From NCBI GenBank assembly GCA_000993205.1, contig LBVU01000003.1, positions 85,820 through 149,819 on the forward strand: DNA of 64,000 bases, read 5' to 3'. Numbering within the stretch: the first letter of the stretch is position 1; every line of letters begins with the position of its first letter. The DNA comes from Candidatus Woesebacteria bacterium GW2011_GWB1_39_10. GTDB taxonomy: Bacteria > Patescibacteriota > Microgenomatia > UBA8517. The notes beneath the pieces were generated by a model, which was given only the letters and a program-made list of their open reading frames with translations, did not search any database and was not told the origin of the DNA. The translations under genes and the position numbers were made by a program. This document shows positions 7,077-29,652 of the stretch, in pieces.

Positions 7077-7080
7077 GCAG

Positions 7081-7409
7081 TCATCCTGAATTCATTTCAG
7101 GATCTTCCTTGTCCTGAACTTGTTTCAGGATCTGCGTGAACAAATCCTTGAACTCCGGATTTTTTGTTTTAATCAAATCAATCTTCCATTCTCTATGCAA
7201 TTCTTGAGTTGTTTTTCTCTTTTGATCGCTTCCAATATTTCTTCAAAAACCTCGTAATAAAGAAGTTTGTAAGTCTTATATTTAGAGCTAAACATACTAC
7301 CAAACCCACTTCTATGCCGCGCAATTCTATTAATTAAATTAGAAGTCACCCCAATATACAAAACCGGTTTTTGATTTCCCAAAATGTAAACGAATCCTTG
7401 TTTAGACAT
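7081..7409 (-). pseudogene. GIY-YIG nuclease family protein, frameshifted near 7197
   Basis: 'FVYILGNQKPVLYIGVTSNLINRIARH' GIY-YIG motif. Frame 0 stops at 7173 ('...REKQLKNCIENGRLI*'). The +2 frame continues as the family-typical 'HREWKIDLIKTKNPEFKDL...' to 7081. A single missing G (TGG to TG) would restore '...QLKNWHREWKIDLI...'. Confidence 0.7.
7083..7131. repeat. Two tandem hairpins with YCCTGAA-N5-TTCAGGR stems
   Basis: ATCCTGAA-ttcat-TTCAGGAT (7083-7103) and TCCTGAA-cttgt-TTCAGGA (7112-7130). Related to the hairpins at 7420-7472 and to the infB/dnaK leader elements. Confidence 0.6.
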
Positions 7410-7419
7410 AATGACAAAG

Positions 7420-7472
7420 ATACTGAAACGAGTTCAGTATGACACACGCAGAAGCTGAACTGAATTCAGCTT
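7420..7472. repeat. Two hairpins, ATACTGAA-N5-TTCAGTAT and AAGCTGAA-N5-TTCAGCTT, between the Lon-like and GIY-YIG genes
   Basis: Perfect 8-bp stems at 7420-7440 and 7452-7472. Same CTGAA/TTCAG core as 7083-7131. Confidence 0.6.
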
Positions 7473-15766: not shown

Positions 15767-17197
15767 CTAGCGGATGGATACTATCACGTCACCCACCCCG
15801 AAATCAAGCTGAGGTTCAAGTATCGCTCCGAATTCTTCGGAAGGTCCAACCGAGGCAACCTCATTTTTTTGTTTTCTGATTGAAACTATTTTTGCCTTTC
15901 CTATTGTTTTTTCGTTCCTTAAAAGAACGACTGTGTCACCTTTTGTGATTCTGCCGCTAACTACTTTTGCGCCGGCAACTTTTTTGTTATTAAAAGGAAA
16001 ACTCGCCAATATGTTTGCGCGTCCTATTTCCTGGATCTTACCTTTTTTAAGTATTTCTTCCAACCTCTGTATAAACTCATAAATTATTTCAAATCTTTCC
16101 AATCTCACATTCTCCGCTTCTGCCAGTTTGGTCACATCGCTTCCTATTTTGGACTCAAAAGAAAAGATATAAGCATTTCCGGTTTTGGCCGCAATTACAT
16201 CCGACGAATTTATTTCTCCGACTCCGTTATCAACAACAATAATTTTAGGCGGAATGGACGCGATAATTGCTTCCAGTGCCCCCGCATTACTAGCCTTAAT
16301 TATTATCGGGATCTCGTCTTCCCGAAGCCGCCTAAGATCAAAAGTTCCTCGAGCCTTCGGAGGCGCAGACCCCGAACTTGCTTCAGGGTTTTCGCCAACT
16401 CTGGCTCCAACCGGCGGAACCAGGCTAAAACCAATAACTTTCGCGGGGTACCCCGGCAAGACTTCGCGAATTGTTTTTCCTTTATCATCAAATAATCCGC
16501 GTACTTTGCAAAGAACTTCTTCGGCAAAAATTGTCTGACCCACCTTTATACTGCCGTTTCTGACAACTACTGAAGCCACCTGACCCATCTTTTCCTTGTT
16601 TGACTCAATAACGACACCTTCAAGATCTGCCGCCGGGTCCCCTTTTAAATCGGCGACTTCAGACATTAGAATAATCATTTCTAATAGTTCCTTTATCCCC
16701 GTCCCGATTTTTGCCGAAACCGAGAAAAAAGGAACATCTCCACCACGTCCTTCAAAAAAAACCTGCTCTTTTTCAAGCTGTCCTTTAAGCGCCTCAACAT
16801 TAACCCCGACAACGTCTGCCTTAGTTCCCGCAACAAGAAATGGGATTTTAGCATCCCGTATTATTTGTAAGGCTTCCTTGGTCTGGGGAGCAACTCCATC
16901 GTCTTGAGCAACCACAAGTACGGCAATATCGGCAATTTTAGCTCCGCGACTGCGCATCTTGGTAAATGCCGCATGTCCCGGAGTATCTATGAAGGTTATT
17001 TTTTTATTTATCCCGCCTGTGGACGGGACCTCAATTACACTGGCCCCTATTGCTTGTGTTATTCCTCCCGCCTCAGCACCAGCCACATTAGTTTTTCTTA
17101 TCGCGTCTAGCAACGTGGTTTTTCCATGATCGACATGGCCGAGCACCACAACAATTGGCGGGCGTGTTTGATTATTTTGATTTTTATTTTCTTCCAT
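15767..17197 (-). CDS. infB: Translation initiation factor IF-2 (short form lacking N-terminal domains)
   Basis: 'VVVLGHVDHGKTTLLDAIR...DTPGH...' G-domain, then domain II and the C-terminal domains. 476 aa. Confidence 0.9.
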   Translation of the reverse strand: MEENKNQNNQTRPPIVVVLGHVDHGKTTLLDAIRKTNVAGAEAGGITQAIGASVIEVPSTGGINKKITFIDTPGHAAFTKMRSRGAKIADIAVLVVAQDDGVAPQTKEALQIIRDAKIPFLVAGTKADVVGVNVEALKGQLEKEQVFFEGRGGDVPFFSVSAKIGTGIKELLEMIILMSEVADLKGDPAADLEGVVIESNKEKMGQVASVVVRNGSIKVGQTIFAEEVLCKVRGLFDDKGKTIREVLPGYPAKVIGFSLVPPVGARVGENPEASSGSAPPKARGTFDLRRLREDEIPIIIKASNAGALEAIIASIPPKIIVVDNGVGEINSSDVIAAKTGNAYIFSFESKIGSDVTKLAEAENVRLERFEIIYEFIQRLEEILKKGKIQEIGRANILASFPFNNKKVAGAKVVSGRITKGDTVVLLRNEKTIGKAKIVSIRKQKNEVASVGPSEEFGAILEPQLDFGVGDVIVSIR

Positions 17198-17245
17198 AAT
17201 GTCATCCTGGAGTCCCGCACTGCGGGACGATAGGATCTTATTCAG
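17198..17245 (-). promoter_or_regulatory. infB 5'-leader element, AATAAGATCCTATCG-[hairpin]-CTCCAGGATGACA, with the SD inside the outer stem
   Basis: On the mRNA strand: CTGAATAAGATCCTATC-GTCCCGCAGTGCGGGAC-TCCAGGATGACATT-ATG. The inner perfect hairpin is 17212-17228. ATCCT/AGGAT pairing would occlude the AGGA SD. Near-identical architecture upstream of dnaK. Confidence 0.6.
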
Positions 17246-25324: not shown

Positions 25325-26173
25325 TTACAATCCTTCTTCTTTCATTTCTTCAACCAAACTTTTTTGATTCCTATTCAATTTTTCCGGAATTGCAACATTT
25401 ATACGGATATACTCATCACCTTTTCCCCGCCCATGCAAATGTGGAACACCCTGCTCCCTAAGCCTCATCATTACTCCGCTTTGAGTCCCCTGGCGGATTC
25501 TGATCTTAATTTCATCTCCAATTGTCGGAACTTTTATCTCACCGCCGAGCACGGCGAGGGAGAAGGGGATTCCTACAGTTACATAAATGTCATCGTCCTG
25601 TCGCTCAAAAAGTTTATGGGGCTTAATATTGACTGAAAGCGTAAAGTCCTCGAAATTAATCCTTGCTCCTTCATAAATGCCGGCAGGAATCTTAATCTTT
25701 CTCTTTTTTCCACCCACATCAACCTCTTTTGAAACTCCGTGTACAGCCTCCATGAAATCAATCGTCATTGAGTATCTCGGTATTTGTTGGCGTTGGGTAC
25801 GCCCAAAAGGATTCCCGCCACCGAAAAAACTTTCAAAAATGTCAAAGGGGTCACCAAAGTCAACATTGCCAAAAGGGTTCTCTCCTCCGCTTGTATAGGT
25901 GTATGTAAAAGGAGAACCTCCACCAGCAAATGGATTCCCGGCAGGGCCATTTGTGCTGCCATACTGGTCAAACATTGATTTCTTTTTGGGATCGCTAAGC
26001 ACCTGATAGGCCTCATTTATCTCTTTGAATCTCTTTTCCGCCGCCTCTTTATCGTCTTTGTGTCTATCCGGATGCCACTCGAGAGCCTGCTTGCGGTAAG
26101 CCTTTTTGATTTCGTCGGCCGAAGCAGATTTCGAAACTCCGAGGATGTCGTAATAGTCCGTTTTTGTGACCAT
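25325..26173 (-). CDS. dnaJ: DnaJ-class co-chaperone, type II (J-domain + G/F + C-terminal domains, no Zn-finger)
   Basis: 'DYYDILGV...AYRKQALEWHPDR' J-domain with G/F-rich linker. No CxxCxGxG repeats. Confidence 0.85.
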   Translation of the reverse strand: MVTKTDYYDILGVSKSASADEIKKAYRKQALEWHPDRHKDDKEAAEKRFKEINEAYQVLSDPKKKSMFDQYGSTNGPAGNPFAGGGSPFTYTYTSGGENPFGNVDFGDPFDIFESFFGGGNPFGRTQRQQIPRYSMTIDFMEAVHGVSKEVDVGGKKRKIKIPAGIYEGARINFEDFTLSVNIKPHKLFERQDDDIYVTVGIPFSLAVLGGEIKVPTIGDEIKIRIRQGTQSGVMMRLREQGVPHLHGRGKGDEYIRINVAIPEKLNRNQKSLVEEMKEEGL

Positions 26174-26177
26174 GAAG

Positions 26178-28094
26178 CTATTCTACCACTTCACCCTCTT
26201 CAACTTTGGCGTCATCTTTCTTTCCATCCTCAGACTTCTTCCCTCCATTTTCACCCTCAGTCTTCTGGCTTCCGTCGTCTGTCTTCGCACCCTGATCCTT
26301 GTACATTGCTTCTCCAATTTTAGAAAGTTCTTCTGACAATTCTTTGGTCGCGGTTTCGATATCTTCCTTTGAAGAATCTTCTTTTCCTGCAACTTCTTTT
26401 ACTTTTTTGATTTTTTCTTCAACTTTTTCTTTTACGTCGGCCGGAACTTTGTCCCCGGCATCTTTAATAGATTTTTCAGCTGTGGCCACCATCGAATCAG
26501 CGGTATTTTTGGATTTGATAGTTTCAGCCTTCTTTTCATCTTCTTCTTTGTGTTTTTCCGCCTCTTCTTGCATGCGTTTAATTTCATCGTCGGATAAACC
26601 AACCGCGCCGGTAATTTTAATATTCTGGGTTTTCCCTGTCGCTTTATCTTTGGCTGTAACGGTTAGGATACCTGAGGCATCCATATCAAAAGTAACCTCA
26701 ACCTGCGGTACTCCACGTGGGGCCGGTGGAATTCCGTCCAATACAAAAGTCCCAAGAGTTTTGTTGTCTGCACTCATCGGCCTCTCGCCTTGAGTAACAA
26801 CTATTTGGACCTGCGTTTGGTTATCACTGGCTGTGGAAAATGTTTCGGTTTTACTTGTTGGAACTGTAGTATTTCTTGGAATCATGGGGGTGGCAATATT
26901 GCCCATTGTTTCAATTGCCAATGTTAACGGAGTAACGTCCAAAAGAAGAATGTCTTTAACCTCGCCTCCCAAAACTCCACCTTGAATTGCAGCTCCAATG
27001 GCCACGACCTCATCTGGATTAACTGATTGATTTAGATCTTTACCAAAAAAGTTTTTGACTGTTTCTACAACTTTAGGCATTCTGGTCATTCCTCCAACCA
27101 TAATTACCTCGTCTATATCGTGTGCATCAAGTTTGGCATCTTTCAAACAGGATTCAACCGGTTTAATTGTTTTTTGAATAAGGTCATCAACCAAGCTTTC
27201 CAATTTAGCGCGGGTTAATTTCATTGTTAAATGAAGCGGCGCGCCGTTATTCTGGGTTATATAAGGCTGATTAATTTCAACTTCATTCGCCGCGGAAAGC
27301 TCAATTTTTGCTTTTTCGGCGGCATCGCGAACTCTCTGAAGAGCTTGTGAGTCGGCTTTAAGGTCCACCGAATTTTCCTTTTTGAATTCAGAAACTATGT
27401 GGTCAACAATCACCGCATCAAAATCGTCCCCACCAAGATGGGTATCTCCATTTGTTGCTTTAACCTCAAAAACCCCGTCCCCAAGTTCCAAAACTGAAAT
27501 ATCAAAAGTTCCGCCTCCAAGGTCATAAACAGCAATTTTGTGAGCATTTTTTTTCTCCAGGCCGTAAGCAAGCGCAGCCGCTGTAGGTTCATTGATAATT
27601 CGCTCAACTTTTAGTCCCGCAATTTCACCGGCCTGTTTGGTGGCCTGACGTTGGGCATCGTCAAAATAGGCTGGAACTGTGATGACTGCTTTATCAACTT
27701 TTTCACCAAGATATTTTTCTGCATCAGCCTTAAGCTTCATCAAAATCCTGGCCGAAATTTCCTGAGGTGTGTAAGTTTTTCCTTCGACTTCAACGTCGGC
27801 CATGCCGCTTTTTCCCTCAATAATTTTATAAGGAACCATTTCTATAGTTCTTTTAACTTCTTTATCTTCAAATCTCCTACCCATAAGGCGCTTAACCGAA
27901 TAGATAGTATTTTTACCATTGAGGATCATCTGTCTCTTGGCAACGTCCCCAACTAAATTTTTAACCACCTCAACAATGGAGGGTGTAGTATTCCTCCCTG
28001 TATCGCCCGCGGAAATAACTTTTGGCCTGCCGCCTTCCATCACCGCAAGACAAGAGTTTGTCGTTCCTAAATCAATTCCGATTATTTTTGACAT
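26178..28094 (-). CDS. dnaK: Chaperone DnaK (Hsp70)
   Basis: '[15 protein letters not shown]', 'DLGGGTFD' and others. 638 aa. Confidence 0.95.
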
Positions 28095-28147
28095 ATTTCA
28101 TATTGTCATCCTGGAGCGAAGTATCTACTTCGCGATAGGATCTTATT
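28095..28147 (-). promoter_or_regulatory. dnaK 5'-leader element with the same architecture as the infB leader
   Basis: mRNA strand: GTTAATAAGATCCTATC-GCGAAGTAGATACTTCGC-TCCAGGATGACAATATGAAAT-ATG. Inner hairpin at 28116-28133. A further ATCCT...AGGAT element lies at 28161-28182. Confidence 0.6.
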
Positions 28148-28175
28148 AACTTTTGATATGATCCTTCAACTTCGT

Positions 28176-28655
28176 TCAGGATAATTGTTTGCTAACAATC
28201 ACCTTCGCATGTCTTACTACATTACCATCTTTAAACTTCCAACCCGTAACAAGAACCTCTGAGATCATATTATCCATCTTTCCGTCAATTACTTCAATAA
28301 CTTCTTGACTGTTTTCGTCAAATTCACTTCCAATTTTAGGATTTATTTCTTCCAAACCTTCTTCAATAAAAACTTTTTTAAATTCCAAAATCGATATCGC
28401 AAGTCCGGAATCTTTTAGATGCTCCTGAGCTTTTTCTAACATGTCCATTATTGGCAGCAGTCTTGAGATTATGCTTAAAGACGAAAATTTTGTCCAAGAA
28501 ATTTTCTCTTCCTCAGTCCTTCGCTTTAAATTATCATAATCCGCCAAAGTTCTTGCCAGTTGGCTTTTCAGCTGTTCCATCTCCAAACTATTCGCTACCA
28601 GGGCTTTGACTGGCCAAGCTTTGCTTATTCGCTTTTCGCTTTTCGCTTTTTTCAT
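28176..28655 (-). CDS. grpE: Nucleotide exchange factor GrpE
   Basis: 159 aa, positioned between hrcA and dnaK, with a GrpE C-terminal pattern. Confidence 0.85.
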   Translation of the reverse strand: MKKAKSEKRISKAWPVKALVANSLEMEQLKSQLARTLADYDNLKRRTEEEKISWTKFSSLSIISRLLPIMDMLEKAQEHLKDSGLAISILEFKKVFIEEGLEEINPKIGSEFDENSQEVIEVIDGKMDNMISEVLVTGWKFKDGNVVRHAKVIVSKQLS

Positions 28656-29413
28656 TGGTTTGCAACTTCCTCAATTAAATTACCAAAATATCTCAAAATC
28701 GGAATGACTGACGCATAGTCTGCTCTGGCGGGGCCAATCACTCCAAGGGCCCCAGGCTTTCCTTTTATACTAAAATGTGTCGAAATTATTCCCGACGTTG
28801 CCAGTTCCGGCATTCCTAATTCTTCACCAAACAAAACTTCCAAGGGTGAAGTAGACTGGAATCCAAAGAAAAGCCTGTCTAGTTTATCAAACTCATCAAA
28901 AATTGAAAATAGATTCTGACAAGCTGCCATTTCTGCAAACTCAGGATTATTAAAAACATAGGAATGTCCAGCCTGCCAAAAGCGGTCCCTCGCCCCGCGA
29001 AGCCCATTGGGTGAAGTGGGGTTTTTTAGTGCCGCTATCGCGAGGGAGCGTGTCCGACTTGCCAAGGCGTGTGTTGCCTCGTCCATGAGTTCGTCGATAT
29101 CGTCCCGAGAGTCCCAAACTTCCTCTTTAGCTTTGACTTCATCGACCAAGCTCATTTGTTTTTCTTCCATAAGTTGATTTATATAAAATTTCATCGCAAG
29201 CGGCGACGGAATTCTTCCTGCTGAGGTATGGGGTTGACGGAGGTAACCGGATTTTGTCAGCGCAACCATTTCGTTTCTGATTGTTGCCGGGGAAACTCCA
29301 AGATTATATTTTTTGTCGAGTGCGTCACTTCCCACAGGTTCGGCAGTTTCGATATATTCATCAATAATCGTCTTTAATATTTGGGTTTGACGGGAAGTAA
29401 GTGAATCAGTCAT
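28652..29413 (-). CDS. hrcA: Heat-inducible transcription repressor HrcA (short)
   Basis: 'LTSRQTQILKTIIDEYIETAEPVGSDAL' N-terminal wHTH. hrcA-grpE-dnaK-dnaJ order. Carries an in-frame GC-rich repeat insertion (29001-29032). Confidence 0.85.
   Translation of the reverse strand: MTDSLTSRQTQILKTIIDEYIETAEPVGSDALDKKYNLGVSPATIRNEMVALTKSGYLRQPHTSAGRIPSPLAMKFYINQLMEEKQMSLVDEVKAKEEVWDSRDDIDELMDEATHALASRTRSLAIAALKNPTSPNGLRGARDRFWQAGHSYVFNNPEFAEMAACQNLFSIFDEFDKLDRLFFGFQSTSPLEVLFGEELGMPELATSGIISTHFSIKGKPGALGVIGPARADYASVIPILRYFGNLIEEVANQ
29001..29032 (+). repeat. GC-rich repeat family, copy B (inside hrcA, translated in-frame as NPTSPNGLRGA)
   Basis: 'CGCCCCGCGAAGCCCATTGGGTGAAGTGGGGT'. Confidence 0.7.
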
Positions 29414-29440
29414 TTAGCAGTATCTTACCTCGAGTGCTAA
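29414..29440. promoter_or_regulatory. CIRCE-like operator TTAGCAGTA-N9-GAGTGCTAA abutting the hrcA start
   Basis: Right half is a perfect GAGTGCTAA; left half matches 7/9. The N9 spacer (GAGGTAAGA on the mRNA strand) carries the only SD-like sequence for hrcA. Confidence 0.75.
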
Positions 29441-29480
29441 CAGTTGTCAAGGGGTAGCACCAGTCGGCGCACCCCGCAGA

Positions 29481-29523
29481 CCCCGCGAAGCCCTGAGCGT
29501 AGTCGAAGGGGCGAAGTGGGGTC
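29481..29523 (+). repeat. GC-rich repeat family, copy C (expanded; intergenic upstream of hrcA)
   Basis: 'CCCCGCGAAGCCCTGAGCGTAGTCGAAGGGGCGAAGTGGGGTC', flanked by related 'CACCCCGCAGAC' and 'CCTCGCAGACC' fragments. Confidence 0.7.
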
Positions 29524-29652
29524 AAGAGCCGTTTAGCTCCTCGCAGACCTTGAACGAAACCGAAGGATAAAGCGCTGATTTAGACAATACCCAACAGAAA
29601 TCCACCCGACCTTGACAAACCTTAGATTAATCTATAGACTAATCTTACTACT

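Follow-up and report, generated by a model that had tools for sequence, protein, structure and literature searches.

Hairpins between grpE and dnaK of a Candidatus Woesebacteria genome as a probable inverted doublet of a dispersed, Ssn-related DNA repeat

Two described groups of dispersed hairpin repeats come closest to the elements discussed here. The first is known from Neisseria, where the repeat NTS (CGTCATTCCCGCG..GCGGGAATCYRG) and Ssn-related motifs (SRM) flank ssnA, the gene of a 94-amino-acid single-domain GIY-YIG nuclease (Chenal et al. 2025, Nat Commun; PMC11893778). The second comprises the CGTC-tagged repetitive extragenic palindromes (REPs) of Di Nocera et al. (2013, BMC Genomics; PMC3733652). 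We compare both with two hairpins in the spacer between the chaperone genes grpE and dnaK of Candidatus Woesebacteria bacterium GW2011_GWB1_39_10, a bacterium of the Candidate Phyla Radiation (CPR). The locus lies in a stretch of 64,000 nucleotides of contig LBVU01000003.1 (positions 85,820 to 149,819), which was analysed as a whole and is called the window below.

SsnA binds its hairpin only as forward-strand single-stranded DNA (ssDNA), and not as double-stranded DNA, RNA or the reverse strand, and it cuts a few nucleotides upstream (5') of the GTC tag. Cutting depends on the three bases preceding the palindrome and binding on the C that follows it, while the loop can be replaced or extended without loss of cleavage. 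In N. meningitidis, SsnA restricts the integration of transforming DNA that bears NTS. A variant, NTSvar, reads CGTCATACT...AGTATC, and the published SRM pattern is HGTCWYN(0-2)YYVSBRHN(0-5)WNVSBRGN(0-2)RNCYNB (all PMC11893778). The published mechanism covers the Ssn systems of Neisseria and Wolbachia. CGTC-tagged REPs, on the other hand, carry a CGTC, TGTC or CCTC tag, AT-initiated stems and a short tail, occur mostly as dimers and have no dedicated transposase; dRS3 of Neisseria and RPE-4 and RPE-6 of Rickettsia belong to them (PMC3733652).

We consider it likely that the grpE-dnaK hairpins are an inverted doublet of a dispersed DNA repeat from the superfamily of SRM and CGTC-tagged REPs, and not a dnaK-specific RNA regulator. 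Family membership, covarying structure, strand asymmetry, doublet architecture and association with a GIY-YIG gene are shown by the present analysis. The units fail the published SRM pattern and differ in architecture and hosts; judging from sequence, we therefore rate them as a new variant within the known Ssn repeat type. The features at the junction are the following (all four genes are Pfam-confirmed).

28105-28142, plus strand (tagged strand, antisense to dnaK): unit A, intact Ssn-related hairpin repeat, identified by covariance model and DNA fold
28143-28159, no strand: 17-nt spacer between the inverted units A and B, within the family-typical range of 2-25 nt
28160-28184, forward on the minus strand: unit B, apparent decayed partner (TTATCCTGAacgaagtTGAAGGATC), identified by position, orientation and conservation in a relative
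28652-29413, minus strand: hrcA
28176-28655, minus strand: grpE, stop codon TGA at 28178-28176
26178-28094, minus strand: dnaK, ATG at 28092-28094
25325-26173, minus strand: dnaJ

An earlier note on this DNA had described two stacked ATCCT...AGGAT elements in the dnaK leader, the second overlapping the 3' end of grpE. Both are there, at 28108-28141 and 28161-28182, and the second includes the grpE stop codon (28176-28178). Together the two inverted repeats take up nearly all of the 81-nt spacer, so that the junction in mRNA sense reads caaTTATCCTGAacgaagtTGAAGGATCatatcaaaagttaataaGATCCTATC-GCGAAGTAgaTACTTCGC-TCCAGGATGACaatatgaaatATG in short form and ...caaTTATCCTGAacgaagtTGAAGGATC-atatcaaaagttaataa-GATCCTATC-GCGAAGTAgaTACTTCGC-TCCAGGATGAC-aatatgaaatATG in a longer one. 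On the plus strand, unit A consists of a (T)GTC tag (TGTC at 28104-28107), ATCCT, G, GA, the distal hairpin GCGAAGTAtcTACTTCGC, GA, T, AGGAT and C. A covariance model derived solely from copies in other genomes gives it 36.6 bits (E=5e-6), and its DNA fold reaches -9.4 kcal/mol (z=-4.1).

Unit B covers the last grpE codons and the stop, and has TTA in place of the GTC tag, encoding ...QLS*. Taken alone it is a weak hairpin (-2.9 kcal/mol, z=-1.5); the covariance model did not pick it up in the scan of the window, and a blastn-short search of the window for further B-like copies returned only noise. Its position and orientation are the same as those of the partner unit in 49 exact doublets among the matches listed by the survey described below. 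Because it is placed as an inverted partner and is conserved in a relative, we read it as the decayed partner of unit A, its tag apparently overwritten by the end of grpE.

Pairs of the form ATCCT-N(3-40)-AGGAT occur six times in the window, against about 2.7 expected by chance from its 66 ATCCT and 70 AGGAT sites, and with an enrichment of only about twofold, bare 5-mer pairing is weak evidence. This figure and the insignificance of unit B on its own are what could be said for chance inverted repeats in an AT-rich spacer. For unit A, such an origin is already refuted by covariance-model E values of about 5e-6 for two copies, by 27 nt of arms identical in a relative, and by hundreds of related copies with covariation; its overall probability is next to nil.

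The second of these two copies lies elsewhere in the window:

17201-17237, plus strand (antisense to infB): second intact unit, in the nusA-infB spacer, 36.4 bits, E=5.7e-6 (covariance model)

The infB ATG (17195-17197) comes 3 nt downstream of the end of this unit, which has its TGTC tag at 17200-17203; the spacer reads ...aataaGATCCTATC-GTCCCGCagTGCGGGAC-TCCAGGATGACattATG. It shares the 27 nt of flanking arms of unit A, with a wholly different distal stem (GTCCCGCacTGCGGGAC) that still pairs. The repeat thus occurs outside the heat-shock operon as well.

To place both copies in a family, we scanned one genome per species with the exact pattern GATCCTATC-N10-30-TCCAGGATGA, which yielded at least 119 loci and at least 136 matches in many phyla (taxon labels are those of the database records). 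On the tagged strand, the consensus is (Y)GTCAT[C/T]CTGGA-[variable hairpin]-GATAG[G/A]ATC. The variable pyrimidine of the arm and its purine partner are C/G in 147, T/A in 71 and mixed in one of 219 units. The palindrome starts with AT, ends with AT and is followed by C, and these A, T and C columns do not vary in our alignment A1. In 37 units of equal length, 90.3% of the cells are paired and 7 of the 12 pairs change on both sides, a covariation score that none of 500 shuffles reached. The variable gap closes with at least two Watson-Crick pairs in 115 of 136 cases and with at least three in 59, versus 3.1 expected after shuffling (among the matches listed).

The stem is bipartite: a 5-bp outer stem plus G.T is followed by an internal loop of tandem G.A/A.G and by a hypervariable distal hairpin, which on the tagged strand mostly ends in a GNA triloop (GAA 31, GTA 12, GCA 5, GGA 3). 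Of the two strands, the tagged one is more stable in 161/166 units with RNA parameters and in 147/166 with DNA parameters. A structure so specific to one strand and so rich in triloops suggests a nucleic acid in single-stranded form, with DNA the more likely. For both unit A and the infB unit, the better-folding tagged strand is the plus strand of the window and is antisense to the genes.

About 42% of the units have an inverted partner 2-25 nt away, and nearly always a unit of the ATTCT/AGAAT type faces one of the ATCCT/AGGAT type: GTCATTCTGGA[hp]GATAGAATC-spacer-GATCCTATC[hp]TCCAGGATGAC, where hp is the hairpin. The 49 exact inverted doublets among the matches listed have sharp ends (YGTCAT...ATGACR). 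GT precedes all 48 doublets that could be scored, with Y (T or C) before the GT in 45; at the ends of the 49 doublets no target-site duplication was seen. The distal hairpins vary among copies of the same genome.

Some further arrangements were observed among the copies. Two loci of Komeilibacteria (L025 5589-5636 and L035 71-118) hold whole doublets in the loop of a terminator-like hairpin (aaggccttgccc...gggcaaggcttttttt), and similar inverted flanks recur in L116, L075 and L051, which suggests that doublets may have been inserted into, or have grown from, pre-existing hairpins. The 3' half of the unit is partly duplicated in tandem (...[half stem]TCCAGGATGAC, and again 7-25 nt later) in L017, L021, L022, L042, L085, L096, L100 and L104. 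Opposite units alternate in arrays resembling the interspersed mosaic elements of bacteria (BIMEs) in L060 (3683-4129), L096 (3835-4304), and L127 and L132 (around a GIY-YIG gene), with a periodicity of 142-143 nt in Alistipes (L060).

The repeat is also linked to a gene. In five loci (L087, L052, L110, L041 and L062), an open reading frame (ORF) for a GIY-YIG protein of about 95 amino acids sits exactly between two inverted units, its ATG a few nucleotides past GATAGRATC and its stop just ahead of GATCCTATC. As an independent test, five GIY-YIG homologues were fetched by protein sequence alone, from Sulfurihydrogenibium, Deinococcus, Dehalococcoidia, a metagenome-assembled genome (MAG) labelled Firmicutes, and Anaerolineales. 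Each of the five has sister GTCAT-tagged hairpins on either side (GTCATTCTGAG...GAAGGATC, GTCATGCTGAGC...GAAGCATC, GTCATTGCGAG...GCAATC), and around two of them the covariance model detects 10-11 units. The homologues are 93-103 amino acids long, and Y7, Y18 and E65 are invariant in their alignment (A2), to be compared with the catalytic Y6, Y17 and E64 of N. meningitidis SsnA (PMC11893778). A profile search of the PDB with the GIY-YIG proteins returned UPF0213 proteins only (1zg2, E=1.3e-7).

The window itself contains a cassette of this kind:

7173-7409, minus strand: ssnA-like single-domain GIY-YIG ORF of 78 amino acids (Pfam PF01541, E=1.5e-12, the sole domain found)
7419-7443, minus strand: 5' flanking hairpin of the cassette, GTCATACTGAActcgTTTCAGTATC, of the NTSvar arm type, with a weak model match of 9.8 bits
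7080-7104, plus strand: 3' flanking hairpin, GTCATCCTGAAttcaTTTCAGGATC, 17.8 bits, E=0.06 (covariance model)
7110-7132, plus strand: 3' flanking hairpin, TGTCCTGAActtgtTTCAGGATC

Both 3' hairpins are forward on the plus strand and hence inverted relative to the 5' unit; that at 7080-7104 reads GTCATCCT...AGGATC. The kinship that had been proposed between the second dnaK element and the hairpins at 7083-7131 is supported by this sequence and by the model score at 7080-7104. The ORF stops after ...KREKQLKNCIENGRLI, and a conserved C-terminus ...NPEFKDLF (EWKIDLIKTKNPEFKDLF), comparable to ...RRKKIALI..NP.W.DLY of the homologues, runs on in another frame (7173-7240). The gene thus appears frameshifted, likely as a pseudogene or through an assembly error.

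This link to a GIY-YIG gene also bears on the idea of a classical REP or REPIN (a REP doublet) moved by a Y1 transposase of the REP-associated tyrosine transposase (RAYT) type, or of a miniature transposable element with inverted repeats (MITE) derived from an insertion sequence, in either case unlinked to a GIY-YIG nuclease. The layout does resemble that of REPINs and BIMEs: doublets are inverted, arrays alternate (L060, L096) and the units mostly lie between genes. However, the tag is GTC and not GTAG, the sole gene found bracketed is the GIY-YIG gene (in the five loci and around the five independent homologues), target-site duplications were not seen at the exact doublets, and distal hairpins differ within one genome, unlike those of recent copy-paste elements. 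We regard this origin as highly improbable.

Among the matches listed, CPR hosts comprise Levy-, Woese-, Roizman-, Davies-, Curtiss- and Komeilibacteria, WWE3, Saccharibacteria and Paceibacterota; other hosts are many Fibrobacter, Bacteroidales, MAGs labelled Gammaproteobacteria and a few archaeal MAGs. With crude ORF calling, 100 of 139 listed copies are intergenic, and units have the same orientation as the downstream gene in 52 cases and the opposite one in 36, without clear bias. They occupy co-directional, divergent and convergent spacers alike.

As to the archaeal MAGs, the flanks of the repeat in a Methanomethylophilaceae MAG (L064; ctgtttatcgtacaag.ctttgca...) are common to Bacteroidales MAGs of the same study (L042, L083, L103), which makes the archaeal occurrence doubtful; L064 probably reflects mis-binning. 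Identical distal hairpins (GTGGTCGTTGCCAC; GGTCACTTCGTTCCC) recur across genomes labelled as different phyla (L013, L027, L033, L058; also L019, L045), which hints at horizontal transfer, mislabelled MAGs or convergent use of preferred hairpins. In L009, L010, L028, L045, L069, L109 and L117, the longest downstream ORF begins at the ATG within the terminal GGATGAC of the unit; the ORF calling may be at fault, or the unit may donate a start codon.

Several other identities were considered and set aside. A phage-borne element is ruled out by a blastn search of phage GenBank entries with the consensus doublet, which gave no match, and by a pattern scan of IMG/VR, which gave only 2 matches in 2.9 million viral contigs. 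A link to intervening sequences of 23S rRNA, in which case units would flank genes for four-helix-bundle proteins (PF05635), was dropped, as such an ORF occurs in only 5/119 loci and those checked are not adjacent to a unit. Hammerhead, twister and other ribozymes, K-turns, C/D boxes and integron attC sites were rejected for lack of their core motifs. Rfam returned nothing at the gathering threshold for the window, at E up to 10 for the locus or at E up to 1 for six repeat-rich loci, and a literature search with printed repeat sequence strings and translated repeat peptides brought up only primers and noise.

How the locus fares in relatives was followed through GrpE homologues and exact-protein look-ups. 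The window and Microgenomates group bacterium GW2011_GWC1_39_7b have the same GrpE (100% identity). Contigs L003-L006 (87% GrpE identity) retain both units, as tcATCCTGAgttttacGAAGGATCC...caaGATCCTATC-GTCCGCCttGGGCGGAC-TCCAGGATGACAAT, and their orthologue of unit B reads TCATCCTGAgttttacGAAGGATCC. Between the window and L003, the arms are identical at 27/27 positions and the spacer at 10/16, and the distal hairpins are unrelated. A Woesebacteria genome (L001/L002, 88% GrpE identity) has only a degenerate remnant, and in L007 (72% GrpE identity) no recognisable unit stands between grpE and dnaK.

The earlier note had taken the hairpins for a separate RNA-structure element controlling dnaK. In that case, they would form a cis-acting RNA element of the dnaK leader, either a thermometer or a coupling switch in which a ribosome at the grpE UGA opens the AUCCUG/CAGGAU helix. 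The mRNA does fold well: a segment of 116 nt reaches -28.6 kcal/mol (z=-4.0), the region of the grpE stop pairs with CAGGAU so that stop codon and AGGA share one long-range helix, and the doublet is retained in a relative with perfectly conserved arms. Several findings nevertheless argue against the proposal. The same unit also precedes infB and recurs at more than 100 unrelated places between genes, pointing either way relative to them; the strand that folds better, the tagged one, runs antisense to dnaK; and the family flanks the gene of a GIY-YIG ssDNA nuclease that does not act on RNA (PMC11893778). The AGGA lies 14 nt from the ATG at dnaK (16 nt in L003, 7 nt at infB), and the dnaK AUG is outside the structure. 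A Shine-Dalgarno-like motif 3-12 nt before the start precedes only 8 of the 51 window ORFs of at least 120 amino acids, so the organism seems to lean little on Shine-Dalgarno pairing. Of the relatives, L001/L002 have only a degenerate form of the element and L007 has none, Rfam has no match for the locus, and heat-shock control is already explained by a CIRCE operator at hrcA (see below). Taken together, a dnaK-specific RNA element is very unlikely. An internal dnaK promoter or a terminator was likewise rejected: there is no T-run, the promoter and terminator scan listed no terminator-like site in the grpE-dnaK spacer, and the lone promoter-like site there (28109-28081) ends inside dnaK.

A third option accepts the Ssn-type origin and lets the host have exapted the doublet for mRNA processing or stability, setting the ratio of GrpE to DnaK in the hrcA-grpE-dnaK-dnaJ transcript. 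REPs are known to stabilise upstream mRNA and can affect translation when near stop codons, and in E. coli operons REP elements set expression ratios and mRNA stability. Such general effects, the position of the doublet inside a polycistronic operon and over a stop codon, its stable RNA fold and the conservation of its arms relative to the spacer in L003 all speak in favour. On the other hand, arm conservation is explained equally well by nuclease recognition, and gene conversion among copies would also account for it; the other relatives have not retained the element, and no measurement made here requires exaptation. We judge it quite unlikely.

Critically speaking, some observations weigh against a dispersed Ssn-type DNA repeat as well. 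The SRM pattern, written as a regular expression, matches NTS and NTSvar and has no match in the window, in units A and B, the infB unit, the hairpins at 7080 and 7443 or 10 GIY-YIG loci. Only two intact units are present in the 64-kb window, and the apparent frameshift in its nuclease gene means that the system may be inactive in the source genome. Moreover, the doublet is kept at the orthologous site at 87% GrpE identity, with arms at 27/27 against a spacer at 10/16, which shows constraint and would allow for a local function in the host.

On the reading as a dispersed Ssn-type repeat, the units flank, and would probably have spread with, the gene of a small single-domain GIY-YIG nuclease (Ssn). 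If the ssDNA-specific mechanism described for SsnA carries over (PMC11893778), the target would be the plus strand, antisense to dnaK, with cleavage predicted at about 28095-28103, and the CPR nuclease would recognise the present variant of the repeat. The doublet would then be an element at the DNA level that ended up in a gap between two genes and was retained there, and any effect on the grpE-dnaK mRNA would be incidental.

A bolder version, which we think unlikely, makes the CTGGA/GATAG-type unit a distinct, uncatalogued Ssn-related class, with its bipartite stem, free distal hairpin and obligate ATTCT/ATCCT heterodimers, its own clade of Ssn, and REPIN-like replication across CPR, Fibrobacter, Bacteroidales and other phyla. 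The dnaK copy may, on this version, be under selection in this CPR lineage (compare the arms at 27/27 with the spacer at 10/16); possible reasons are shielding of a conserved gene from replacement by transforming ssDNA, or coupling of grpE and dnaK expression.

Heat-shock control of the operon has a more conventional candidate:

29414-29440, no strand: CIRCE operator (TTAGCAGTATCTTACCTCGAGTGCTAA) with 2 mismatches, directly upstream of hrcA

The earlier note had placed CIRCE/HrcA control at hrcA, and the operator is indeed present there. It overlaps a TTGACA-17-TAAGAT promoter, and the two likely provide the heat-shock control of the operon. Upstream of this promoter lies a GC-rich block (29441-29570) in a genome of 40% GC. 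It holds CCCTGAGCGTAGTCGAAGGG on the plus strand, with a stem, tandem GA and a GTA mini-hairpin and without a GTCAT tag, and TTATCCTTCGGTTTCGTTCAAGGTC on the minus strand (29570-29546), which is similar to unit B; both may be further decayed repeat units bracketing hrcA-grpE.

For annotation, this means that a conserved-looking hairpin before a chaperone gene is not to be labelled a regulatory RNA if it is a dispersed Ssn-type DNA repeat. The published SRM pattern misses units that bracket ssnA-like genes in several phyla, so the diversity and host range of Ssn are probably underestimated, including in CPR bacteria with their tiny genomes. A freely varying distal hairpin is in line with published results in which cleavage survived an exchange of the loop (PMC11893778). 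Through the link to a GIY-YIG gene, the CGTC-tagged REPs, described in 2013 as lacking a dedicated transposase (PMC3733652), gain a candidate enzyme.

Among the known systems, Ssn/SRM has much in common with the units described here. Both have a (C/T)GTC tag 5' of an AT-initiated palindrome that is followed by C, a strand-oriented hairpin with a loop free to vary, inverted repeats on both sides of a single-domain GIY-YIG gene of about 94 amino acids, and hundreds of intergenic copies; the 5' hairpin of the window cassette even has the NTSvar arm type (GTCATACT...AGTATC). In contrast to Ssn/SRM, the units here fail the published degenerate pattern, have a bipartite stem (5 bp and G.T on the outside, then GA/AG as a purine-rich internal loop, then a distal hairpin that is hypervariable and frequently closed by a GNA triloop) and form doublets that join an ATTCT-type to an ATCCT-type unit. 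Their hosts (CPR/Patescibacteria, Fibrobacter, Bacteroidales and others) are unmentioned in PMC11893778, and nuclease activity on the variant is putative.

With the CGTC-tagged REPs, the units have in common an unpaired CGTC or TGTC tag, a stem starting with AT, a short tail beginning with C, frequent dimers (heterodimers being common) and no association with RAYT. The CGTC-tagged REPs have a continuous stem of 8-9 bp and a loop of 4-5 nt, whereas the present units have a 5-bp outer stem, an internal loop, a variable distal stem and mostly triloops, and the taxa differ as well. REP/BIME/REPIN-RAYT systems are similar in that imperfect palindromes are scattered between genes, pair up as inverted doublets or alternate in arrays, and flank a single associated nuclease gene; recognition as ssDNA hairpins, putative here and by analogy, is a further likeness. 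Here, however, the tag is GTC instead of GTAG, the enzyme GIY-YIG instead of HUH-Y1, and the distal stems vary between copies. Finally, RNA thermometers such as ROSE and fourU also place a hairpin with AGGA ahead of a chaperone gene. Unlike them, the unit is not specific to heat-shock genes, does not sequester the start codon, folds better on the antisense strand and matches no Rfam family.

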